Part shown: positions 16,365 to 63,754 of the stretch, piece by piece
Layout of the letters: every line of letters starts with the position of its first letter
Position numbering within the stretch: the stretch's first letter is position 1
Origin: an uncultured virus (IMG/VR IMGVR_UViG_3300034082_002096)
Taxonomy: Duplodnaviria; Heunggongvirae; Uroviricota; Caudoviricetes
IMG/VR virus record: IMGVR_UViG_3300034082_002096
Reading direction: 5' to 3' (one strand)
Length of the DNA: 64,000 bases
The notes under the pieces: model-generated
Seen by the model: the letters and a program-made list of their open reading frames with translations, nothing else
Database searches by the model: none
Told to the model about the DNA's origin: nothing
Program-made: the position numbers and the translations under genes

Positions 16365-19300
16365 TCATGATGGTTTTACTCCCATTCCGCGTGGTTTGTA
16401 CTTTTTGTTTCTTTGGTCTATCATATACGGTAAGCTAAACCAATGTTCGAACCACTCGTCTGTTCCTGGTTGTAAACCTTTTTTCTTTGCTATACGTGCT
16501 GTTTCTGTTCCAGTAATGCTCATATTTTCATATAATCCACTTATAATTTTTATTTTAGACGGATCAAATACCATTCTTACGGTTGACTTTGTTTTTCCAA
16601 CATTATAGCTATCTAATACTCCAACTACATCTACTATATCAAAATCAAATAATTGTGCAATAACTGCAAGAGAATCTGTTGATAGTTTACCATTGCGAAT
16701 ATGTCGTGTAAACATTTGCAATGCTTTTTGAATCTTGTCATCTGGAATTCCATTTTCTTTTAGACCATTTATTACAGCATTTACAGAAATTCCTCTAAAA
16801 TCCGTTCCAGTTGAATTTATTGTTAATACTTTTCCTACTTCTACTGATACTTTTAATACTTTAGAAACTGCTGTTTGATAATCAAATGCACGTCTTTCAT
16901 CTGTATAGGTATTTGCCACAGCTAAAATATTTGTTAAAAATATAGGATTTTTAACTATCATATATTTTTCTAATTTTCCAGCATCGTCTAACAATTTAAA
17001 ATAATTATCATCTGATGGGGTTAAAGTTTCTATTTCTTTATGTAATCTATTCCATTCTTCTGGATCACTTATATAAGAAACATTAATAGTTCTATTTTTA
17101 AAACCACCTTCTGCTCGTAATTTATTAACCTCTGGGGTTCCATGATACCATTCATTTGATTCAGTAATATTAGTGTTAATATTCTCGTATCCTACTATTC
17201 TGGCATTAGATACCGTGAATTCACTTTCAGAATCGGTATCATTACCTGATATAATGTCATCTGGTTTATATTCAAATTTTATAAGAATTTCATCATTATT
17301 GGTAAGTCCACTATAATATGTTTTAACAAAATTTTCACTATTACTTAAATATATTCCTTTTCCGCCAACTTTTATTTCTTTATTTTTAACTAATGGAAAT
17401 TTTACTTTTTCATCTGCAAGAGAATATGCAGTTTTAGTTTTTGGATCATATGCCATTATTTTATAACCAATTGACGAAACAGTTGAATTTTCTCCAACCA
17501 ATCTTCCCATATATGGATGCTTTTGAAACCCAGTATTAGAAGGTTTTCTTTTTGCAGGAATTGGTTCTGAGCCTCTTACTTGGTCTGGTTTATTTCTTTC
17601 TGTCATTTTTTTTGGACCAGTGAATTTTTTATAACGTTTTTCACCAGTACTAAAATTAACTAATTTATCTAAATCAAAACCACTAGTGCTGCCCGCCATT
17701 TCGCCAGCTACCTCTTCAGTATATATAATAGGTTGATAATAATTCCCATTATATTCTATCATTTTTGCTGGACCCATATTAAATTTATGTCGGAATTCTA
17801 ATTCATGGCGGGGAAGCTGATCTGTTTTTCTAGTTTTCATACTATGACTTAAAACTTTATAAGACGACCCTTTTGGTAAAGTAAATCTAGTTCCAACAGG
17901 CAAATCATCAAATAACCCTTGTTCATTTGCTATATTATATGCTTCTCTTTTATCATTTACTCTATCAGATATATCTCCCATAAACCCTTTATGGAATTTT
18001 TTTAGCTTTTCATCTTCACGTTTTTGATCAAGATCAACTATTTCTGCTTCTTTTAATTTTTTTACAGCTTCTTCTATTTTCTTATTGCTGCTTTCTTTCA
18101 ATGCAAAACTTATATTTTTAACATCATCTGTAGTTATATTAACCAAATTGGTAGCACCTTTTGATAGCTTTCTAAAATAACCTTGCATATGCATATATTG
18201 CATTAGATAAAATAGGTATTCTGGCATTAGTAAATCTTTTCTAATTACTTTTATACCAATATGTTGTGGATTGTATTCTCTAGTAGGAGAACCAACTTTC
18301 TCTATTGAATTTCTACGCCATATCCAAAAATCTGCATCTTCGAATTTGGTTTTGATTTCCGCCAAATCTCCTAATCTTTTTCCGATAGATTCTTTTAAAT
18401 TTTCTTCGGTCTTTCGAGAATCCCCCATTAATTCTATATATTTTTCAAAATTTTCTTTACGTTGCTCTAATCCCTTATCACCCCCATTTACTTGATAAGT
18501 AACTTCTGCTACATCATTAAAATCAGATACATCTGGTCTAACTCTGTTTATCCAATACCAAATTGAAGTTAATGCTGCTACTTTTGGAGTAGAAACCAAA
18601 TCAGGATTTCCAACTAAATCTAATCCTAATTTTTTTCCTGCTTTTTCATAATTTTCTTTACCAGTTAAATGTAAAAATCCTCTACCACGATACTTGTAGC
18701 CATCACCAGCATCAGTGTTTCCATTTCTGCCTTCATATGCATCAAAATCTTCTTCATCGCCATATTCAACTAAGGTTCCAAAATAATCAGTTTCGTGAGC
18801 CGCTTGTGCAAGAAGTGCAGCCAATTCATCATTATTAATTCCATATTTTTTAGCAAAGTTTTTAAAATATGATTCGTATCTTGAATCTGTTAGCGTATCT
18901 CTTGCTCTTGGGCGTATGCTAGTTTTTGGTGCAAGTTCGCTTTTCTGTACTGGTTTTGCTTGTGGACGTATGCTAGTTTTTGGTGCAAGTTCGCTTTTCT
19001 GTACTGAACCTTGCGTTGACGGTGTTTTTGATATGGGTCTTTCAGGCTGCGAAAATTTTTGTGATACAGAGGCTGGATTGGTTGTTTGTAGTTTGTCGTA
19101 TGCATTTTTAGTTCCCACCGCCCCCATACCCAATACACCCATTGCCCCAACTAATGCAGCTTTTTTGAGTTTATCTTTCAAACCTTCGTCTAATATACTA
19201 TGCATATTATCCAGTTCTATCATAATACCTTCCATATGCAATTCGGGTTGTTCTCTGGTTGAACCAATATCTTTATATACAATATTTAATCTATCAAGCA

Positions 19301-20498
19301 TTGCTTTTAATTTTGCTAATTCACTTTCATTAGCAGGAACAATTACCATGTCGCTATCGCCTTGCCCATATTCGTCTGGGTCTTCTGTTCCTAAACTGGT
19401 ATAATGCTGTCCTATTTTATACCAATCCATATCACTAGGAGTATTGACAACTAATGCATACTTTGGCATAGTTAGCAAATCGTCTGAATAACCTTCTGGA
19501 TGTGGTTCTATTGCATGACCACCTTCCATAATGGCTAATTCCAATGATGAATATTGCTCACTTAATCCCAAATTAGACAATTTATTAATTGATGTATTTT
19601 TTACTGCTTTTTTGTTTAAAATTGGTGGATAGCCATCTTTAGTGACTTTATTTCCAAATTTAGCAGCTTGTTTACTTATTTCATTTGGTCCAACATCAAC
19701 AGTAGTATTGACGTTTTTAACTATTCTACCAACGCCTTCTTCAGTTACTTTTACAGTTGGTGCATTTTGTAATCCAAGATCGCCGCCGAAGTTTAATTTT
19801 CTTTTTATATAAGCCAATATGCTTACGAATATTTTCCCAATCTCAGCCATATCTGCAAAGAAACTCATAAATCCAGACATAGTTGTTCCTGAAATATTGA
19901 TTATCATATCAGATAAATCATTTAGCTTATTGTCAAACAGTTCAGAAGCACCAGTAGTAAAAAAAGTTAATAAACTACTTGCAGAATCACGATATTCTAT
20001 AAATTTTGTTAATATGAACTTAGAAAAACTGTATACTCCTAATGAATATAAGAAGCCTTTCCATCCAGGAATTCGTAAAGATTGTGTTATTTTTGTGGTC
20101 AAGTTATTGATTAATTCTTTCAAACCATTAGATACATTAGCTAGAGCATTATTTTGTGATGTTTTGCTAAGTATTTCAGTAGAAACTGCTCTTATTGACT
20201 TCATAAGATTTCTGGTTTGTTTGTTTAATTGTTCTACTACTGTTTCCATATAATTAGGATTTGTTATTATGTTTTTTATTAATACTCCTGCATCCTTAGT
20301 ATTGACTAAGTTTTGACTTAAATCTTCAATAGTATCGTCATATCGTGATTGTAAATATTGCTTCATAGAAGTTAAGAAATTTTCATATAATATGATTTCT
20401 TCTAAAATAATTTTAGCATTATTAGCTGAATTTATACTTTCGGATAATATTAAATTTGGTTGAATTATTTTAAATAAAACATCACTTGACTTTTGCAT
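16365..20498 (-). CDS. Large modular virion polyprotein-like protein (GH19 hydrolase, HsdS TRD-like and ART-like modules)
   Basis: AHET..F..LVE, YRGRGFLHLTGKENY, VNGG (GH19); KRLGDLAEI...ITTDDVKNISF; WYHGT...VFDPSKIKI; many x-x-E junctions. Confidence 0.8.
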   Translation of the reverse strand: MQKSSDVLFKIIQPNLILSESINSANNAKIILEEIILYENFLTSMKQYLQSRYDDTIEDLSQNLVNTKDAGVLIKNIITNPNYMETVVEQLNKQTRNLMKSIRAVSTEILSKTSQNNALANVSNGLKELINNLTTKITQSLRIPGWKGFLYSLGVYSFSKFILTKFIEYRDSASSLLTFFTTGASELFDNKLNDLSDMIINISGTTMSGFMSFFADMAEIGKIFVSILAYIKRKLNFGGDLGLQNAPTVKVTEEGVGRIVKNVNTTVDVGPNEISKQAAKFGNKVTKDGYPPILNKKAVKNTSINKLSNLGLSEQYSSLELAIMEGGHAIEPHPEGYSDDLLTMPKYALVVNTPSDMDWYKIGQHYTSLGTEDPDEYGQGDSDMVIVPANESELAKLKAMLDRLNIVYKDIGSTREQPELHMEGIMIELDNMHSILDEGLKDKLKKAALVGAMGVLGMGAVGTKNAYDKLQTTNPASVSQKFSQPERPISKTPSTQGSVQKSELAPKTSIRPQAKPVQKSELAPKTSIRPRARDTLTDSRYESYFKNFAKKYGINNDELAALLAQAAHETDYFGTLVEYGDEEDFDAYEGRNGNTDAGDGYKYRGRGFLHLTGKENYEKAGKKLGLDLVGNPDLVSTPKVAALTSIWYWINRVRPDVSDFNDVAEVTYQVNGGDKGLEQRKENFEKYIELMGDSRKTEENLKESIGKRLGDLAEIKTKFEDADFWIWRRNSIEKVGSPTREYNPQHIGIKVIRKDLLMPEYLFYLMQYMHMQGYFRKLSKGATNLVNITTDDVKNISFALKESSNKKIEEAVKKLKEAEIVDLDQKREDEKLKKFHKGFMGDISDRVNDKREAYNIANEQGLFDDLPVGTRFTLPKGSSYKVLSHSMKTRKTDQLPRHELEFRHKFNMGPAKMIEYNGNYYQPIIYTEEVAGEMAGSTSGFDLDKLVNFSTGEKRYKKFTGPKKMTERNKPDQVRGSEPIPAKRKPSNTGFQKHPYMGRLVGENSTVSSIGYKIMAYDPKTKTAYSLADEKVKFPLVKNKEIKVGGKGIYLSNSENFVKTYYSGLTNNDEILIKFEYKPDDIISGNDTDSESEFTVSNARIVGYENINTNITESNEWYHGTPEVNKLRAEGGFKNRTINVSYISDPEEWNRLHKEIETLTPSDDNYFKLLDDAGKLEKYMIVKNPIFLTNILAVANTYTDERRAFDYQTAVSKVLKVSVEVGKVLTINSTGTDFRGISVNAVINGLKENGIPDDKIQKALQMFTRHIRNGKLSTDSLAVIAQLFDFDIVDVVGVLDSYNVGKTKSTVRMVFDPSKIKIISGLYENMSITGTETARIAKKKGLQPGTDEWFEHWFSLPYMIDQRNKKYKPRGMGVKPS
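18913..19006 (-). repeat. Tandem 40-nt direct repeat, 54-nt period, encoding VQKSELAPKTSIR twice
   Basis: Identical copies at 18913-18952 and 18967-19006. Confidence 0.95.
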
Positions 20499-24574: not shown

Positions 24575-26821
24575 TCACTCTATATTTATGGAATTTTCAG
24601 TTAATTTAATAACAATTTTCTTAACTGGTTCGCCAAATAGCATCTTGCGAGAAAGTGGTTTTTTGATATATTCATTAACCACACGGGCCATAGGTCTTGC
24701 TCCCATCAACGGATCAAATCCTTTTTCACTTACCCATTCAACCACATTTTTATCCCATTCTAGTTTTACATTACGCTCTTTGGCTAAATCTTGTAATTCT
24801 TTTAGGAATTTCTCTGCAATCTTATGAATATATGTTTTGTCTAGTTTTTTGAATTTTACTACTGCATCCAGTCTATTTCTAAATTCTGGAGAGAAAAAGC
24901 GTTTTACTGCGGTATCTTGTTCTTCGTCGTGTTTACCACCACTGAAACCAATTACATTTTTTTCACTGTCAGCAGCACCTAAATTGCTGGTCATAATAAT
25001 TACTGAATTTCTTGCACTAACTTTTTTGCCATTGCTTCCAGTAATCATGCCATTATCCATTATCTGGAGCAAAACATTTAGAACATCTGGGTGTGCTTTT
25101 TCAACTTCATCTAAAAGTAAAATACAATTTGGATTTTGTTCTAATTCATTGATTAATGCACCACTACCTTGATTTCCATCGCTATATCCAACATAACCGG
25201 GGGGAGAACCAATTAATTTAGCAACAGTATGCTTTTCTTGGTATTCACTCATATCGAATCTTACCAATGTGAGTTTCATAGTTTCTGCTAATGCTTTTGT
25301 CAATTCTGTTTTACCAACACCAGTTGGACCAGTGAATAGATATGATCCAATAGGTTTGTTTTTGCTTTTTAATCCAGCTTGGCTAATATAAATTGAGTCT
25401 GCAAGAGTTGATATTGCAATATCTTGACCAAATACTAATTCTTTTAATTTACTTTCGACATCAATAGTTTCTTTTTTTGATGCATTAGTAGTAACCATAT
25501 TAACTGGAATTTTACAAATTTTTGCAATTTCTATTTTAATGTCTTCTCCAGTTAGTTTTAATTTAGTCCGTCTATTTCTCTTTTGAATTCTTTTTTGGGC
25601 ACATGCACTATCAATCAAATCAAACGCTTTATCTGGAAGTTTTTTATTATATAGAAACTGAATACTTAGATCAACTACTAAATCTATGGTATCTTTTTCT
25701 ATTTTAATATCATGATATTTTTCATAGGAAGCGATACTTTGTGCAATTATTTGCTTTGCTTCTTCTGCGGTTGGTTCACTAACATCAATTTTATGAAAAC
25801 GTCGAACAAGTGCACTATCTTTTTCAAAACGCTCTCTATATTCGCTATACGTGGTAGAGCCAATACATTTTATACTTCCATTCTGAAGTGCAGGTTTTAG
25901 CATATTTGCTAAGTCAAGACCACCACTGTTTCCTGTTCCGGCACCCATAATTGTATGAATTTCATCAATGAATAATATACAATTTTCTTCTTTTTCTAAT
26001 TCTTCTATTATTTCTTGTAGTCGTTCTTCAAAATCGCCACGATATTTTGTTCCCGCCATTAATGCTCCAACATTAAGACTATAGATTATATAATCTTGAA
26101 TTGTTTCTGGAACTTCGCCTTTTTCTATTTTTAGAGCAAGTCCTTCTACGATTGCTGTTTTGCCAGTTCCTGCTTCTCCTACTAAGATGGCATTATTTTT
26201 CTTTTTTCTGGTAAGAGTTTGTGCCAGTTGCTCTAATTCTAATTCTCTGCCTATAAGATTATCTATCTTACCTTCTTCTGCCAGTTTATTCAGATTTGTT
26301 GTATATTTTTCTAAAACTGACTTTCTTTTTTGTTTATTAAATCCTGAATTTTGCGATGATTGTTTTGTTTGACTATTACCAGAATTTGCAATACTTGCTT
26401 CTTCATTTAGAATAAATTGAACTAGACTTTCACGATCCAATCCATACTTACTACAAATGTAAACTGATGGTGATTCTGTCTCTGCTAAAACTGAAAGTAA
26501 TAGATCAACAGTATGGATTGCTCTTTTGCCTGAGAAAAATGCTTGTGCCAATGCACGATTAAATACTCTTTCTAACGTAACTGTCTTTTTTGGTTTTACC
26601 GCAGGTTCAGTTACTATATCAGTAAGGCTAAAATCAATATAATTATTTAATTCGATACTGATTTCTTTAGCATCGCAAGAAATATTCTCACATAATTCTT
26701 TAATTTCTGGATCATCCAATAATGCCGCCGAAAGATGTTCTAATGTTACATATTGATGATTGTGACTTCCGGCAAGTTGAAACGCTTGATTTACGATATT
26801 TTCTACACGTGGATTATTCAT
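24575..26821 (-). CDS. clpA: ATP-dependent Clp protease ATP-binding subunit ClpA
   Basis: Clp N domain, GEAGTGKT, GTKYRGDFEER, GPTGVGKTEL, RFDMSEY, IGF loop, GARP. Confidence 0.95.
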   Translation of the reverse strand: MNNPRVENIVNQAFQLAGSHNHQYVTLEHLSAALLDDPEIKELCENISCDAKEISIELNNYIDFSLTDIVTEPAVKPKKTVTLERVFNRALAQAFFSGKRAIHTVDLLLSVLAETESPSVYICSKYGLDRESLVQFILNEEASIANSGNSQTKQSSQNSGFNKQKRKSVLEKYTTNLNKLAEEGKIDNLIGRELELEQLAQTLTRKKKNNAILVGEAGTGKTAIVEGLALKIEKGEVPETIQDYIIYSLNVGALMAGTKYRGDFEERLQEIIEELEKEENCILFIDEIHTIMGAGTGNSGGLDLANMLKPALQNGSIKCIGSTTYSEYRERFEKDSALVRRFHKIDVSEPTAEEAKQIIAQSIASYEKYHDIKIEKDTIDLVVDLSIQFLYNKKLPDKAFDLIDSACAQKRIQKRNRRTKLKLTGEDIKIEIAKICKIPVNMVTTNASKKETIDVESKLKELVFGQDIAISTLADSIYISQAGLKSKNKPIGSYLFTGPTGVGKTELTKALAETMKLTLVRFDMSEYQEKHTVAKLIGSPPGYVGYSDGNQGSGALINELEQNPNCILLLDEVEKAHPDVLNVLLQIMDNGMITGSNGKKVSARNSVIIMTSNLGAADSEKNVIGFSGGKHDEEQDTAVKRFFSPEFRNRLDAVVKFKKLDKTYIHKIAEKFLKELQDLAKERNVKLEWDKNVVEWVSEKGFDPLMGARPMARVVNEYIKKPLSRKMLFGEPVKKIVIKLTENSINIE

Positions 26822-44977: not shown

Positions 44978-45568
44978 TTATTTTTTTGTTACAATACTAT
45001 CAGCAAGCCCATAATTGATTGCTTCTGTGGCAGTCATATAATAATCTCGTGACATATCTTTTTCAAATTGTTCGTATGTCTTGCCAGCAGTATTATGTTT
45101 GACATATACTTCGATCAATTCTTTATTAATACGCAAAGTTTCATCCATTGCAATTTTCATATCCATTGCTGTTCCTCTAGTTCCAGAACTAACTTGATGG
45201 ATCATATGTCTTGCATGAGTCATGATGTAGCGATGGCCTTGTTCGCCTGCTTGTGCTAGTAGTGATCCCATGCTAGCTGCTTGCCCCATTACTACGGTAT
45301 GAACGGGACTTTTAATGAAATCCATTGTATCTAGTATACTGAAACCATCACTTACTGATCCACCGGGACTATTAATATAAAAATTAATAGGAAGGGAATT
45401 GTTATCACTCTCAAGAAATAACATTTGTGCAACTATTAGACTTGCACTATGACTATTAACATCAGTGTCTAGCATGATTATACGATCTTTTAAAAGACGA
45501 GAATATAAATCATATGCACGTTCACCGTGTGAGTTTTTTTCTATTACGCTTGGTATAAAATTTGGCAT
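44978..45568 (-). CDS. clpP: ClpP protease
   Basis: [31 protein letters not shown]. Confidence 0.96.
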
Positions 45569-47158: not shown

Positions 47159-48048
47159 GACTTATTATTGCACTCGTCACATAATGTTCTAACCCATGGG
47201 TTATCTGCTCTAGTGCTTCCTTTGTTTCCGCATACTTCACATGTACACATGCTCATGGAAGCTGCCATTGCAACAACACCATTAATATAATCATCGCTAG
47301 ATGTAGTATAAATTCGTAGACTTCCAAATTTTTCTTTTATCTGAACAATTTTGAAATTTGTATAGTTCATATTATAAACTCTACGATTAATATGCCAACA
47401 TGCATAATTGATAATATCTAACCAACCATTATTGCACTCTATAGAGCATGAAAGTATATTTTCATACTTTTTTGCTATTTCTTCATATTTTTCATTCATA
47501 TTAAAAATCTCTTTCTATGATACTTATTGTTGGACTTGTGAGGCTGGAATATTTGTTTAATATTTCTCTTGCTTTTTTTACATAGTCATCGCGTTGAAAT
47601 CCAGCTTTGTCTATACTCATTTCTATATAGCTATATGCAATTGATTGCAATGCACGTTTATAATCTCGTAATTCATTTTCACGATCAGATAATAAAAAAT
47701 CGGCTGCATCCATACCCCACTGTGCCCAATAGTTTTGTATAGATTGTTCTAGCGTTTTTCCACTAGAAACAATATCTGGGTCAGATGTTTGTATAATCCA
47801 ATTATTATCTTCAAAAAAATATTTACTATTTTCTGGTAATAAATTTTCTAATAAAATATTATTTGTCATTTTATATCACTATCATATTTGTTTACATTAT
47901 AGTCATCAATCAAAACTGGCCCTAGATCACGTTCTTGTTCCATATAATGACCATCATGAATAATCACATTTTTCATTTGACACGGACAACGTGGTTCGCC
48001 ATTTTGTGGCCCAATACATTCACACGTCCACATATCATTGTTTTTCAT
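47155..48048 (-). CDS. Three hypothetical ORFs (47155-47499 with QIKEKFG.LR and CxxC; 47501-47869; 47866-48048)
   Basis: Coupled co-oriented ORFs. Confidence 0.7.
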
Positions 48049-48434
48049 ATTTTACTTCCATCTATGAATTTATTAATACCATTTTTCATTGTAAGATAAT
48101 TGTCTAGATACATTTGAATATTTTTAGCACCAATTGGATTTTTACTATGAACATAAAATTGAAAATCTTGTGGAATATGCACAAGATTGTCCATGTCTCT
48201 AGATACCAATTCTTTTACAATATCATACCCAGTTGCTTCGCCTTTTCCCAAATCATGGTCAAAGCTTATATAAGAAGGAAACTGGTTACGCTTGGCGATT
48301 TCATAATAAACTTCAAATTCGTTACGAGCAATTGTCCATTCTTCACTCACATATTTATTATAGATGTAATATGGTGCCCATTTTACATCTTGCGGATTTC
48401 TCTCATCGTCAATAAAAAGATTCCAGTCCATCAT
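48045..48434 (-). CDS. Cyclic-phosphate-processing receiver-domain protein
   Basis: LFIDDERNP, ISFDHDLG, TGYD, VHSKNPIG. Confidence 0.8.
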   Translation of the reverse strand: MMDWNLFIDDERNPQDVKWAPYYIYNKYVSEEWTIARNEFEVYYEIAKRNQFPSYISFDHDLGKGEATGYDIVKELVSRDMDNLVHIPQDFQFYVHSKNPIGAKNIQMYLDNYLTMKNGINKFIDGSKI

Positions 48435-52590: not shown

Positions 52591-52667
52591 TGGTCCTAGA
52601 AGAGAGATTCGAACTCTGCCCTACGTGATCCACAATCGCGTGTGCTAACCGCTAACACTATTCTAGG
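52591..52667 (-). tRNA. tRNA-His(GTG)
   Basis: CCTAGAA/TTCTAGG acceptor, TT-GTG-GA loop, TTCGAAT, ACCA. Confidence 0.85.
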
Positions 52668-53519: not shown

Positions 53520-53840
53520 TCATGGTTGATATGGCATACTTCCGCCAAATAATGCACTTTGATCACCATCAATAAACCAAGGCATATCATCAATCCATAC
53601 ATCAATTTTAATTTTATGATTTTCCCACATAAAATATTTTTTAGGTTGAATATTGGTCCCAAAACATTTATCAGGACCGATAATTTTTCCTATAGTGTTT
53701 TTTGGATCATCCATATGATGTTCCGCTCGTGCTGATACACAATAAACTGTATGACCTCTAGATATAGAATATCTAGCAAATTCATCCCAAAGATGAGGGT
53801 CTTTTGTATAGGTATCATCGTAATCTAATGCGATAATCAT
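53520..53840 (-). CDS. Small HAD-like phosphatase
   Basis: IALDYDDT, VSAR, WIDD. Confidence 0.75.
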   Translation of the reverse strand: MIIALDYDDTYTKDPHLWDEFARYSISRGHTVYCVSARAEHHMDDPKNTIGKIIGPDKCFGTNIQPKKYFMWENHKIKIDVWIDDMPWFIDGDQSALFGGSMPYQP

Positions 53841-53861
53841 ATATTTTCCAATGTAAAGAAA

Positions 53862-53941
53862 TGGCACTCCTGAGAGGATTCGAACCTCTATGTGTCCAGT
53901 TACCCTTTCTACACGTTCGTAGCGTGAGGGGATACAGAAGT
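53862..53941 (-). tRNA. Non-canonical tRNA-Arg(ACG)-like RNA lacking a 5' D arm
   Basis: ACTTCTG/CAGGAGT-G-CCA; CACG-CTACGAA-CGTG; AGAGG-TTCGAAT-CCTCT. Confidence 0.75.
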
Positions 53942-53950
53942 ATATTGTAT

Positions 53951-54310
53951 TTATAAAAGTTTTAGATTTCCAGTAATTTCCATCAATTCACTGTGCAATG
54001 CAGGTCCAACAGCAATACATGTATTGGTAGGAACATTATTAAATTCAGTTTTTCCTGAATCTGTAATCAATGCGGTAATGATATTAGCAGATTTTGCTTT
54101 CTCCATAATATCAAACAATTCTTGTTCACTATCTACACTTACAGCAATCTTAGTAAATTGACCCGAAAGCCATGATACCACAGAAGGATGATCTAAATTT
54201 TCAAGAGTTGCTTTTAAACTTGCGTGACAGCCTTGTGCGATAAGTTTACCTTTACGCATGTTAAGGTCTTTTCGCATTATTATAATTTGTTTGTAATAAT
54301 CGTTTTCCAT
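53951..54310 (-). CDS. pth2: Peptidyl-tRNA hydrolase Pth2
   Basis: RKDLNMRKGKLIAQGCHA, ITDSGKTE, TCIAVGP, TGNLKLL. Confidence 0.93.
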   Translation of the reverse strand: MENDYYKQIIIMRKDLNMRKGKLIAQGCHASLKATLENLDHPSVVSWLSGQFTKIAVSVDSEQELFDIMEKAKSANIITALITDSGKTEFNNVPTNTCIAVGPALHSELMEITGNLKLL

Positions 54311-55571
54311 TATTTCTTATACTTTTTTAAAATATTTTCTGCTTGCCCCATCATTAGAGTAGCAGCAAGTTGAATTTCATCAAACTTATCTGGATCATCT
54401 GGATTGCAGTCAGTTTCTTCTATAAGAACTAACAATGCACTCATCCAATTTATGCAGCCTTCTAGTGTTCCGGTTAATTCATCCATTACCATTCTCTTGC
54501 TTTTGAATCTGCTATATCTTTTAATGCAAGAATAGTCATACTAATATTTGTAATTTCAATTTGACTAGTTTTTGCATTCCCATCCCAATCTTCGTCTTCA
54601 TACACAAGGTGTGTTTTGCCTTGTGTATGAATTATTTTGGTATGTTCGTCTATACGACTTACATAATAATCTGACATTATTTCATACCGTTTTTACGAAT
54701 TTTACGAGCAGCATTTTTGCTTACTTGTTGGAATACTTCGCCAAGATTGTAGTAAACAAGTTCCCATAGCCAGATTGCAGGCTTATGTGATAGTTCCCAT
54801 AATAGGGCAAACGGCCACATTAATACCCATGATGCGAGACGATTTTTGTTTGAAGAAGCTGACATAGGATATGAAGTCGAATCTAGAAATTGTTCAAACT
54901 TTTCTTCTGATTTTAGCTTATCAACATATTCTTCTTTTGAACTAGATGGAAAATTTATTTTGATCCATGATTCAAATGCCAATTGAATGTTTAGCTTATT
55001 TTTATTTACAAAGTTTGGAAATTTCCAAAAACCTGTAAAAAGTGAACCACATACAATATAAACAATTGCAAACAAGACAATGATGAATGGATTGCTTACG
55101 ATAGCAGCCCATACTGGCACTCCGAATACCCATTGTAGCAGTGATAGTCCAGCAATTAGTGTAATGGTTCCCATAGCAAAGTTGTCATATTCTGATACCA
55201 CAATCCCTACTGCCAAAAAAGCAAGTAGAAAAATACCAAACCATATGCCACTAGATAGTCCAAGTAGTAATATTTCCATTTATATTTCCTTTTTATTTTT
55301 TAATTCCAAGAGTCCGCTGAATTATTTCAAGCTGATCTTTCATTCCTTCTTTGTATGCATCTTCTAGCAAACGAGTAATTTGACTACGATGTGTATTTTT
55401 TCCAACCATTTCATCAAAAAAAGCAAAAGTTCTTGATCGCCAAGCTTTATCGTTCCACTTGGCGACCATTAGTTCACCTTCTTCATCAATATACCATTTT
55501 GTATATCCGGGACCATATCCATCATATGGATCATGTCTTTCGTCATTATATGGCATTACCATATGCTCCAT
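54310..55571 (-). CDS. Four hypothetical ORFs (54310-54492, 54486-54677, membrane protein 54677-55279, 55293-55571)
   Basis: Coupled co-oriented ORFs. Confidence 0.7.
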
Positions 55572-56117: not shown

Positions 56118-56642
56118 TTATCTTTCGTGCCATTGGCCCATCAGTGATTGAGCCTGCGTCATATGTTTATATAGTAATCCATTTTCAGAATCAGTATGGA
56201 CCCACCGTCCTTTTCCCAAAACTTCTTTGAACCTATATCGAGTATCATCGAATAGTATATAGTCTACCACATCTTCCGCATAGTTGTCAAGGTAATCTTG
56301 TACTTCGTATGCACGATCTTTGGCTTCCAATTCTGGATTATTCAGTGGATTGGTTTTCCAAGGATCAGCAAACTTACCACGAAAACCACTATTTTTAAAT
56401 GTAGTCATAACCCAATGTTTGGTCATTTCATGCTTATAATCAAAACCATCTTTCCATGTAGTCATCAAAACAAATGCAACCGGATATCTGTCCCACATTT
56501 TGTTACAAAAATCAATCGCAACTGGGTCAAATTTACTCCATTTCTCATATTCATTATCACACGAATAGTGAACTCTCGAAGATGTAAAAACACCATCAAC
56601 GTCAAGAAATGCAAAATATTTAGTTTTTTCAGGTCGCTGCAT
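56118..56642 (-). CDS. HAD phosphatase (RNA-repair type)
   Basis: FLDVDGV, TTWK, R..EV..YL, YILFDD. Confidence 0.8.
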   Translation of the reverse strand: MQRPEKTKYFAFLDVDGVFTSSRVHYSCDNEYEKWSKFDPVAIDFCNKMWDRYPVAFVLMTTWKDGFDYKHEMTKHWVMTTFKNSGFRGKFADPWKTNPLNNPELEAKDRAYEVQDYLDNYAEDVVDYILFDDTRYRFKEVLGKGRWVHTDSENGLLYKHMTQAQSLMGQWHER

Positions 56643-57625: not shown

Positions 57626-58165
57626 CTATTCTTTTCCATGATGATCAATTGGTTTCCATATTTTCTTTTTCATAATACGACCAACATCATCGAAGGATAA
57701 TGGCATATAATTATGACAATCTACACCAACATCAATAGATAGTGAATTTGGATCATCTGGCAACGATCCATGGCTATGACCATATAATTGTATTGAACCG
57801 TAGTGACAACGATTCCAAACACGCATAGCATAGTGACATAGTGTAATCCATTGACCATTTACTTTGATTTCTTTTAGATCATCAATTGTATCCCATCCGA
57901 TTATTTGGACACCAGTTTTGTCATGGTTTCCTTTAATTAGATGCTTGATACCATTTAATCTATTGAAATATTCTTGTCCTTTTTCTAGATTTGAAAAACA
58001 AAAATCACCAAGAAACCAAACATGATCGTATTGTTGAATTTTTGAATTCCAATTAGAAATAATAGTGTCGTCCATTTCTTGAACCCCAGAAAATGGACGA
58101 TTACTATATTTAATAATATTTGCATGTCCAAGATGCAAATCAGAGGTAAACCATGTATTAGTCAT
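57626..58165 (-). CDS. Calcineurin-like metallophosphoesterase
   Basis: SDLHLGH, LGDF, GNHD, YGHSH, DVGVD. Confidence 0.9.
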   Translation of the reverse strand: MTNTWFTSDLHLGHANIIKYSNRPFSGVQEMDDTIISNWNSKIQQYDHVWFLGDFCFSNLEKGQEYFNRLNGIKHLIKGNHDKTGVQIIGWDTIDDLKEIKVNGQWITLCHYAMRVWNRCHYGSIQLYGHSHGSLPDDPNSLSIDVGVDCHNYMPLSFDDVGRIMKKKIWKPIDHHGKE

Positions 58166-59604: not shown

Positions 59605-60720
59605 TCATATCACCATTCCATTTACGTCATGATTGTTGCTTCCATAAAACCAGTGTTTTTGGCTGGCAACGTGATTCGCTCTAACATACTTTGCCACACT
59701 TTGTCTAAAATGTCTATAGTCAAATGCATCTGCTATACGAACAACATAACCTTCATGAATATCACGATCAGTTTTTTCATTATATAATGAACGAATTTTT
59801 ACTTCATCCCATATTCCATCGTATAATACGGGAACCATTGGAATATTAAGTAAGTTAAACCATTCAACAGTATCGTCCCATGATAAACAAATATTTTGTT
59901 CATTCCAGATAGAAAAACCTAACAGATAACTTGAAAGATTATCATATTTTATAGAATGAACTGCATATAGATTTTCTGCACAAACTCGCCATCCATCGGG
60001 TAATTCATATGAACGTTGCATCCAAAAGTTTTTTGCCCAATCACGAGTATAATGTGATCTACCATCTACGCTACGAGCATGACAATATGACTTATATCCA
60101 GAAAAATTCTCACCATCCATCTTGCGAGTAACAATAACACGTTTACCTAAGAATCCAGATAAATCACGCATAATGCGGTCATCGTCTGTAATGCCGGGAC
60201 TCCACGATAAATGATAAGTTCTTGGATATTTTACATATTCTACAAATAAATCATCAATATCTGGATGCCAGCCCAATATTTTTTGAACTGACTCATCTGC
60301 AAACAATGGTCCTTTTGTTCGCTTCCCACTGTCAAGTATAACATTGCCCCATTTATCATAAACGTGGTCATAATACATATCTTCTGGAAGAACGATTTTT
60401 TCAATCTTTGCAGAAATACGAATATCTTCTACGCTAATAGTAGTTATTTCTGCATCAGCATGACAGCCTATTGGTTTATACATTCCTTTGCCAAAATTTA
60501 TTATTCCTGCATCACAAAGTGTTGCACCATTTTCTAAATAATATCCACCATCTGACCATAAACGCCGCTCAATGATATGGTGTGCATCAAGTTTTATAGG
60601 ATCACCTATTTCTTTGCCCATTATTATACGGCGTTCACCTTCTTTGATGCCACATATCACGCAACGATATCCATCACGTTCAAAAACTTCTTTTCTAAAT
60701 TCATCACGTGTTAATAGCAT
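59605..60720 (-). CDS. HNH-like domain fused to ATP-dependent RNA ligase
   Basis: RDGYRCVIC...AHHI...NGATLC; YVKYPRTYHL, TRKMDGEN, EGYVVR, AKYVR. Confidence 0.85.
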   Translation of the reverse strand: MLLTRDEFRKEVFERDGYRCVICGIKEGERRIIMGKEIGDPIKLDAHHIIERRLWSDGGYYLENGATLCDAGIINFGKGMYKPIGCHADAEITTISVEDIRISAKIEKIVLPEDMYYDHVYDKWGNVILDSGKRTKGPLFADESVQKILGWHPDIDDLFVEYVKYPRTYHLSWSPGITDDDRIMRDLSGFLGKRVIVTRKMDGENFSGYKSYCHARSVDGRSHYTRDWAKNFWMQRSYELPDGWRVCAENLYAVHSIKYDNLSSYLLGFSIWNEQNICLSWDDTVEWFNLLNIPMVPVLYDGIWDEVKIRSLYNEKTDRDIHEGYVVRIADAFDYRHFRQSVAKYVRANHVASQKHWFYGSNNHDVNGMVI

Positions 60721-63678: not shown

Positions 63679-63754
63679 TGGCCCCCAAGGACGGAATCGA
63701 ACCGCCGACACCATGCTCTTCAGGCATGTGCTCTACCAACTGAGCTACTTGGGG
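63679..63754 (-). tRNA. tRNA-Phe(GAA)
   Basis: Full cloverleaf, CT-GAA-GA loop, GCCA. Confidence 0.92.

Follow-up and report, generated by a model that had tools for sequence, protein, structure and literature searches.

Can a gene that carries the D-loop nucleotides of a tRNA on the wrong side of its anticodon arm still encode a working tRNA? The question is raised by an 80-nt tRNA-like gene on the minus strand (53941-53862) of a 64,000-nt stretch of DNA, hereafter the window, from an uncultured virus of the Caudoviricetes (IMG/VR record IMGVR_UViG_3300034082_002096). Our analysis places this gene in a conserved, structured family of tRNA-like phage genes with a transposed D-loop block. On sequence evidence, we put at about three in four the probability that it truly encodes an elongator tRNA that accepts arginine (anticodon ACG), in the genome of a T4-like lake phage, and that it belongs to a conserved, phage-restricted Arg/Ile family with a segment-swapped core.

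Read as its reverse complement, the element parses exactly as an initial annotation of the window had it: acceptor stem, T arm, seven-nucleotide anticodon loop (CUACGAA) and CCA are intact, 8 unpaired-looking nucleotides separate the 5' strand of the acceptor stem from an anticodon stem of 4 bp, and the sequence contains no D hairpin. The anticodon stem is followed by TAGAA, AGGG, TAACTGGACACAT (13 nt, containing CTGGA) and the T arm. The body comprises 77 nt, from 53941 to 53865, and the encoded CCA lies at 53864-53862. The element possesses the acceptor stem with discriminator, the T arm (T54, Psi55, C56, A58) and the seven-nucleotide anticodon loop with U33 and a purine at position 37 that characterize a canonical tRNA; the D stem-loop that the cloverleaf places between positions 9 and 26 is missing. 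The expectation that standard scanners would overlook such a gene was borne out. Over the window, ARAGORN called a tRNA-His, a tRNA-Ile and a tRNA-Phe and nothing at 53862-53941, and Rfam at its curated gathering thresholds returned the same three tRNAs only, leaving the element unreported.

The element is not an isolated oddity. When a 1001-nt query was compared with a phage collection, the matches were confined to the 80 nt (81-84% identity, E 6e-10) and fell within the tRNA clusters of Streptomyces phages Mildred21, Braelyn and Navo, in a gap that carries no annotation and on the same strand as the tRNAs; between the window and these copies, the acceptor and anticodon stems differ by compensatory changes. 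A pattern built on the shared motif recovered 24 loci from viral contigs, and an anticodon-free core pattern recovered at least 120. When the window and the loci of the three Streptomyces phages were added, the matches listed gave 149 occurrences and 108 distinct sequences. Once L068 (3' part missing) and the chance hits L074 and L096 had been dropped, the rows with at least 6 of 7 acceptor pairs made up a 105-row alignment (A1), on which a family covariance model (R1) was trained. A third scan left the core free and required no more than GTAT, the ACG loop and the displaced D-loop motif; it found 52 loci with 45 distinct sequences and varied cores. A second alignment (A2) holds 65 distinct rows aligned by R1. 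In the window, R1 detects a single copy at 53865-53941 with 89.3 bits (E 3e-24), a score that is partly a matter of construction because the window sequence is among the 105 training rows; the ordinary tRNAs score 12-23 bits. Applied to loci L148-L235 and the window, the model gave 73 matches, and a further 112 came from L004-L103, loci L104-L147 lying outside its coverage. Altogether the family has at least 151 distinct sequences, on phage contigs and in cultured Streptomyces and Microbacterium phages; five rows were dropped before these were compared, namely three ordinary tRNAs, L205 451-526 and the partial L068. Members sit within clusters of tRNA genes, on the strand of the tRNAs, and hardly any carries an annotation. 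Second copies often adjoin the first, Arg always beside Arg and Ile beside Ile.

Family members are elusive for the same tools as the element itself. ARAGORN called none of the 105 native sequences of A1, and among 23 family elements in 20 loci the Rfam tRNA model (RF00005) gave 12 scores of 29.1-40.7 bits and 6 of 24.9-28.6, the other 5 being unlisted; ordinary tRNAs neighbouring the family loci score 41-72 bits with that model. A few copies depart from the common form: L068 399-464 is degenerate and lacks the 3' strand of the acceptor stem, L205 451-526 is a poorly paired CAU-type copy with 35 bits, and in L042 274-352, of the Ile(UAU) type, the bulge is longer and different.

The proposed secondary structure holds across this diversity. 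On A1, 94.4% of cells are paired, compared with 64.1% after shuffling (none of 500 shuffles reached the observed value) and with 33-47% when the partners are slid by one to three columns; on A2 the figure is 94.7%, and RNAalifold independently arrives at these four helices. The acceptor stem, whose 5' strand (positions 1-7, 53935-53941) pairs at 7 of 7 positions in the window with 53866-53872 ahead of the discriminator G (53865), covaries at all seven pairs and is 99.6% paired on A1 and 98.2% on A2. The T arm (53873-53889) joins a perfect 5-bp stem, AGAGG/CCUCU, to the loop UUCGAAU, and on A1 its stem is 98.5% paired, with covariation. In the anticodon arm (53911-53927) the four Watson-Crick pairs, 16-19 with 27-30, all covary on both alignments and close the loop CUACGAA, with the anticodon ACG at 53918-53920. 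Below them lies a U.U apposition, 15:31, and the corresponding positions on A2 form C-G, A-U or U.G in 16 of the 65 distinct rows and are unpaired, mostly U.U, in 49. Since 15 faces 31, the arm has five layers, like that of ordinary tRNAs.

The fourth helix, which we call stem 2, spans the anticodon arm and joins CCC (positions 11-13, 53929-53931) to GGG (positions 37-39, 53903-53905). Its covariation evidence comes from the scan that left the core free. Across A2 it is 98.9% paired in the register 11:39, 12:38, 13:37, with A-U 30, C-G 15, G-C 13 and U-A 1 at the first pair, C-G 49, A-U 9, G-C 3 and U-A 3 at the second, and C-G 62 and G-C 1 at the third, where one more G-C occurs in the UCG gene of phage Braelyn; the variants include ACC/GGU, GCC/GGC, CCC/GGG, AAC/GUU, CUC/GAG, CGC/GCG, CAC/GUG and CGG/CCG. 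The initial annotation had drawn this helix as CCCT with AGGG. An extra helix is indeed there and covaries; it has 3 bp instead of 4, and the register drawn was one base off, for pairs 12:39 to 15:36 are satisfied in 66.0% of cells, compared with 68.5% in shuffles. Both registers can be drawn in the window because positions 11-14 are all C. The minimum-energy structure of the single sequence adopts the earlier register, which the family does not support, and single-sequence folding (-19.6 kcal/mol, z -0.28) carries no thermodynamic signal. Between the anticodon stem and the 3' strand of stem 2 lies a purine-rich bulge, AGAAA in the window (positions 32-36, 53906-53910) and 4-5 nt long in the family, reading NGAAA in most members and AGAA or AGTA (AGUA) in divergent subfamilies.

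The displaced sequence behaves as a D loop would. A D loop follows the consensus A14, R15, Y16, U17, G18, G19, position 20, and further on A21. The segment after stem 2 reads U-A-R-Y-U-G-G-(A/U)-N-A-C-A-Y in the family, matching that consensus and then ending in a pyrimidine just before the T stem. In the window it is UAACUGGACACAU (positions 40-52, 53890-53902), in which A41, A42, A51 and U52 are the A14-, R15-, A21- and Y48-like residues, G18 and G19 fall at positions 45-46 (53897-53896) and A20 at position 47 (53895). Three canonical tertiary contacts hold in the new order, two of which can be followed by base covariation, the third being position 20, which tracks the anticodon class. The pair resembling the Levitt pair R15:Y48 is AU in 82 rows of A1, GC in 15, GU in 3 and something else in 5. 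At the elbow, GG occurs with C56 in 142 of the 151 distinct sequences, and all six sequences with GA in its place have U56 (loop UUUGA); the combination of GG with U56 is never seen among the 151, and of the remaining three, which lack GG, two have AG with a UGCAA T loop. The displaced GG and T-loop position 56 thus covary as the G19:C56 elbow pair. Hence the view put forward in the initial annotation, that of a rewired, non-cloverleaf tRNA with its elbow GG and arginine base A20 on the 3' side of the anticodon arm, is upheld, and the homologues on which it had been staked beforehand do preserve the extra helix and the displaced GGA.

The same segment carries identity information. PMC9976931 gives A20, C35, G/U36 and A/G73 as the identity set of arginyl-tRNA synthetase (ArgRS); for the isoleucyl enzyme (IleRS) it names the D-loop residues G16, D20 and D21 together with the anticodon and the discriminator. 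In the family, GG is followed by A in all 54 Arg-class rows that possess it and by U in 41 of 42 Ile-class rows. The 42 Ile-class genes all have A as discriminator, and among the 62 Arg-class genes it is G in 35, A in 17 and U in 10. Position 20 and the discriminator therefore follow the anticodon class as the ArgRS and IleRS rules predict, and the window element, with A after GG, anticodon ACG and discriminator G, satisfies the ArgRS set. Two features of A1 may be recorded beside these: CCA is encoded in 44 of 62 Arg-class and 7 of 42 Ile-class genes, and many Ile-class genes start with C1-G72 or U1-A72.

The anticodons of A1 are ACG (50), GAT (30), TAT (12), TCT (7), TCG (4), CCG (1) and CAT (1), and across the family only NCG, NCU and NAU occur, which stand for arginine and isoleucine plus one CAU; the loop CUACGAA is identical in 49 of the 50 ACG-type genes. 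The initial assignment to tRNA-Arg(ACG) stands for the window element, and the architecture proves wider, being shared by Arg(UCU, UCG, CCG) and Ile(GAU, UAU) genes. Searches with the core pattern yielded no hit when the middle anticodon base was set to G or T and, when the third was set to A or C, a single hit at a chance locus that is not a tRNA. As UAU and UCU are one base apart, the spectrum suggests a route from one class to the other.

A segment swap would bring these observations together. Let a canonical tRNA be divided into blocks A (1-9), B (10-21, the 5' strand of the D stem and the D loop), C (22-48, the 3' strand of the D stem, the anticodon arm and the variable loop) and D (49-76); the proposed order in the gene is A-C-B-D. 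With this order the two D-stem strands would enclose the anticodon arm, as a 3-bp helix able to stack on it, and the D-loop nucleotides (A14, R15, G18, G19, position 20, A21) would come next and lead straight into Y48 and the T arm. Stem 2 is accordingly proposed as a stand-in for the D stem, with canonical 23-25 paired to 12-10: its 5' strand would correspond to 23-25 and run on into 26 and 27-31, its 3' strand to 10-12 and run on into 13, A14 and the D loop, and its polarity would suit a D stem that continues the stack of the anticodon stem. The connector U8-A9-U10 (53932-53934) would contribute, in its position 10, the equivalent of canonical 22, and the bulge probably supplies variable-loop-like nucleotides 44-46. 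The sequence fits this scheme with G10:C25-like and U12:A23-like pairs, plus A9. In the layered core of a tRNA, nucleotide 9 lies against 12:23, next to 13:22, while 45 lies against 10:25 and 21 sits in the layer beside 15:48. The three new junctions (9 to 22, 44-46 to 10, and 21 to 48) would thus join nucleotides that are neighbours in the L shape, so a normal L fold seems possible.

Restoring the canonical order in silico gives a matching result. When columns 37-52 of A1 were moved before columns 10-36, ARAGORN called 105 of 105 sequences, 104 with the expected anticodon, and when the D-loop block was deleted it called none of the 105; a control whose cut points lay 4 columns away still received a call in 66 of 105 cases, which tells against a strict interpretation, for the test is permissive and speaks for cloverleaf compatibility without pinpointing the junctions. 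The arrangement may well have arisen when blocks B and C were duplicated internally, giving A-B-C-B-C-D, and the first B and the last C then disappeared. Downstream, the transcript would be cut by RNase P and charged by the host ArgRS through A20, C35 and G36; A34 would probably be deaminated by TadA, and EF-Tu and the ribosome could then use the tRNA to read CGU, CGC and CGA.

Cultured phages carry both classes. Some 40 records of Streptomyces BE-cluster phages contain the Ile-GAU type near 74-75 kb, unannotated in all except EGole, and Mildred21, Braelyn and Navo have the Arg-ACG type in addition. In EGole, the exact 77 nt (L237 395-471, record 75265-75341) are labelled 'tRNA-Leu, codon recognized UUA', apparently through the invariant UAA of the displaced D-loop segment having been taken as the anticodon. 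Directly upstream of the rearranged Ile tRNA, which lacks an encoded CCA, Streptomyces phages have a 'nucleotidyltransferase' gene (L236 12370-12891, L237 1-381) that may encode a CCA-adding enzyme. An Arg-ACG type confirmed by R1 is present in Microbacterium phage A3Wally; two further Microbacterium phage records, including that of Zooman, and a 462-kb record of an uncultured phage are known from a blastn match only. Braelyn is the most informative case. Its tRNA cluster contains three rearranged genes, Ile GAU, Arg UCG and Arg ACG, all on the strand of the tRNAs. The 38 ordinary tRNAs of this phage cover all 20 amino acids; arginine is served by UCU and CCU, among others isoleucine by UAU and GAU, and there is no CGN reader. 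Given an ordinary set of this kind, the rearranged ACG and UCG genes supply the missing CGN readers. The Arg(UCG) gene (L236 30045-30120, record about 92044-92119) is unannotated, has a CCG/CGG stem 2 and follows just after a gene for an HNH endonuclease.

Outside phages the family is scarcely met. The core pattern gave 36 hits in 185,579 species genomes, of which 13 are real, all on contigs of 0.7-163 kb from metagenome-assembled genomes (MAGs); five of these MAGs have one copy each. The other 23, among them the hits in both isolate chromosomes, lack an acceptor stem and were set aside as chance matches, so that the isolate genomes in this set contain no real member matching the core pattern. 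The 72,556 plasmids and 5,426 Escherichia coli genomes that were searched gave no match.

Several observations weigh against the reading of the element as a decoding tRNA with a swapped core. With permissive filters RF00005 does report 53865-53941, at 26.7 bits (E 0.0016, cut-off 29), in an alignment that sets 4 nt against the 15-nt D arm of the model and accommodates 18 inserted nucleotides beyond the anticodon arm. No more than four Watson-Crick pairs and the U.U apposition make up the anticodon stem, and the U discriminator of 10 of the 62 Arg-class genes falls outside the A/G73 rule. The search patterns themselves dictated much of the conservation seen in the core of A1, U8 and A9 being invariant in columns that they fixed, and the covariation counts lack phylogenetic independence. 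The three-dimensional argument draws on the general geometry of the tRNA core and not on a model. All 24 sequencing runs that contain the stretch are DNA metagenomes, most from lake water or freshwater, one from a biofilm and one from wastewater, with no RNA run among them. The gene is also dispensable in nature: in two close relatives, represented by contigs from lake metagenome runs X11 and X16 with flanks about 96-99% identical, 45 other letters stand between 53840 and 53988 in place of the 147 nt from 53841 to 53987, which hold the tRNA and the last codons of the adjacent PTH2 gene. The tRNA cassette thus shows a presence/absence polymorphism. Finally, some carriers possess an ordinary tRNA with the same anticodon, such as Ile GAU in Braelyn and an Arg tRNA annotated 'cgt' in A3Wally.

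This last observation leads to the alternative that survives best, and which we nevertheless judge improbable, namely that the RNA is a non-decoding mimic acting as a decoy or sponge for a host nuclease that targets tRNAs, a synthetase or a modification enzyme, to which it would offer a genuine Arg (or Ile) anticodon stem-loop, elbow and acceptor end, and thereby protecting or manipulating the real tRNA pool. Redundant ordinary tRNAs would fit such a role, as would the near-invariance of CUACGAA in 49 of 50 ACG-type genes, the restriction to two amino-acid classes, and the proximity in the window of genes for an RNA ligase, HAD_SAK_2 and cREC_REC. A decoy, however, would have no need of a class-specific position 20 and discriminator, of a covarying 7-bp acceptor stem or of a CCA that is often encoded; no nuclease or binding partner for it was identified, and the rearranged genes are the only CGN readers of the otherwise complete set in Braelyn.

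It is distinctly less probable that the element is a D-armless tRNA after the fashion of mitochondrial tRNA-Ser(AGY), with an extended anticodon helix, flexible connectors, a boomerang-like shape and no true elbow, in which the GG segment would be merely a long variable region. The D hairpin is certainly absent, the extra helix does lengthen the anticodon arm, and folding of the single sequence draws just such a shape. The change from GG to GA is nonetheless accompanied by a change from C56 to U56 in six of six cases, with no mixed case among 151 sequences, the R15:Y48-like positions covary and the T loop is fully canonical; elbow and Levitt pair are thus kept, unlike in D-armless mitochondrial tRNAs.

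Reordering at the RNA level deserves still less credence. The transcript would be cut and religated to A-B-C-D, for instance by a phage RNA ligase, in a manner reminiscent of the circularly permuted tRNA genes of red algae. Covariation is blind to whether the order is A-B-C-D or the native one, the un-swapped order gives a perfect cloverleaf in 105 of 105 sequences, and RNA ligase genes do lie near the tRNA clusters of the window, Braelyn and A3Wally. Three cuts and three ordered ligations would be required, however, and we know of no pathway for a tRNA transposition of this kind; no bulge-helix-bulge or intron-like motif was seen, no Rfam intron family was found at the element, and the native order folds into covarying helices unaided. 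Least credible of all is a decaying pseudogene or a chance tRNA-like remnant, to which failure in the scanners, absence from two close relatives and a few degenerate members (the truncated L068, and L205 451-526 at 35 bits) might point, since at least 151 distinct sequences from unrelated phages keep every helix by compensatory changes, a record incompatible with neutral decay.

We therefore return to the segment-swapped decoding tRNA and ask how it relates to known systems. With a canonical class I elongator tRNA-Arg(ACG) as described by RF00005 it shares the acceptor stem and CCA, the T arm with UUCGAAU, the anticodon loop with U33 and A37, the U8-, A14-, R15-, G18-, G19-, A20-, A21- and Y48-like residues and the location in tRNA clusters; it differs in having the D-stem 5' strand and D loop on the other, 3' side of the anticodon arm, so that no D hairpin is formed. 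The D-armless mitochondrial tRNAs such as animal mt-tRNA-Ser(AGY) (PMC4013460, PMC9427863, PMC7609411) resemble it in lacking a D hairpin, in a prolonged anticodon helix and in being natural departures from the cloverleaf. The phage family, by contrast, keeps the D-loop nucleotides in a new place and a normal length of 77 nt, and it occurs in phages of bacteria and not in organelles with co-evolved factors; as covariation links the displaced nucleotides to the T loop and Y48, the RNA should adopt an L shape with an elbow. In Cyanidioschyzon merolae and other algae, circularly permuted tRNA genes likewise have a segment order that differs from the cloverleaf, and according to PMC3978253 they place the 3' half first and restore a normal tRNA via a circular intermediate. 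In all members of the phage family, on the other hand, the acceptor halves keep their usual order and the transposition affects two internal blocks, so that circularization could not undo the arrangement.

The bacterial translation apparatus may well accommodate such a molecule. An engineered D-armless tRNA, 'mini HisT', is reported to be accepted by E. coli translation, which indicates that bacterial aminoacyl-tRNA synthetases, EF-Tu and ribosomes tolerate a tRNA without a D arm (PMC11551756). Mini HisT is an artificial deletion whose D loop is gone, whereas the phage family is natural and conserved. Full-text literature, with subscription journals and supplements outside its coverage, yielded no phage or bacterial tRNA of this arrangement, and the accessible text of a 2020 review of non-canonical tRNAs (PMC7609411) describes no such tRNA and contains neither the word phage nor the word virus. 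The topology is new, and distinct both from D-armless mitochondrial tRNAs and from circularly permuted genes.

A large natural family operating in bacterial cells would thus break the cloverleaf and apparently keep every tertiary contact of the L shape, providing a natural experiment on which features of the tRNA fold are matters of topology and which of geometry. It also means that inventories of phage tRNAs are systematically incomplete, as the roughly 40 Streptomyces phage records with unannotated copies and the one mislabelled tRNA-Leu attest, and it explains the missing CGN readers of the otherwise complete Braelyn set. The fold might serve synthetic biology as a scaffold for orthogonal tRNAs, and the hypothesis is directly testable, since the genes occur in phages that are in culture with their hosts. 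The swap may be kept because it confers resistance to a nuclease or another factor that reads the D arm; the evasion of tRNA-targeting defences raised in the initial annotation is speculative. Taken further, and at odds well short of even, these could be the first natural non-cloverleaf tRNAs in bacterial cytoplasmic translation, a phage-only Arg/Ile class in which the transposed D loop would preserve L shape and synthetase identity and the swap would remove the D hairpin as a target for recognition or cleavage, so that the phage's own decoders survive a tRNA-directed nuclease or surveillance factor of host or phage by which ordinary tRNAs are disabled.

The window around the element has a G+C content of 31-36% and a T4-like gene content, with a DNA polymerase, both subunits of topoisomerase II, an RNA ligase and Sir2. 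Next to the tRNA, and likewise on the minus strand, is the gene for a PTH2 peptidyl-tRNA hydrolase (53951-54310, Pfam PF01981, E 6.6e-33), whose stop codon lies 9 nt upstream of the tRNA. A scan for promoters and terminators returned 8 promoter-like sites, compared with 7.7 in shuffles, and carries no information. One sequencing run contains a contig identical to the window across 53750-54500, and another a lake relative with 31 differences over 653 nt, among those listed only one of which falls in the element: 53889 T>C on the plus strand changes A53 to G and the first T-stem pair from A-U to G.U, so that pairing is kept. The nearest virus record, a fragment of 30 kb, contains neither a tRNA nor a match to R1 and is therefore uninformative.

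Further minus-strand genes of the window form a cluster of RNA-repair type (48045-48434, 56118-56642, 57626-58165 and 59605-60720), encoding cREC_REC, a cyclic-phosphate processing receiver; HAD_SAK_2, of the 'Swiss Army Knife' RNA repair type; a metallophosphoesterase; and the RNA ligase, which towards its N terminus has a weak match to HNH endonuclease PHROGs. The cluster suggests a module of counter-measures against tRNA damage. Two of the ordinary tRNAs, both on the minus strand, are themselves slightly unusual for phage tRNAs: the tRNA-Phe (63679-63754) starts with C1 (acceptor CCCCAAG), and the tRNA-His (52591-52667) scores 40.1 bits in Rfam. Elsewhere on the minus strand are a phage ATP-dependent protease (24575-26821, phrog_4871, E 9e-260), a ClpP protease (44978-45568) and a 1377-aa protein with an endolysin-like domain (16365-20498). 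On the plus strand, opposite to the genes, a perfect-looking 15-bp hairpin at 54597-54631 is followed by a T-rich tail.

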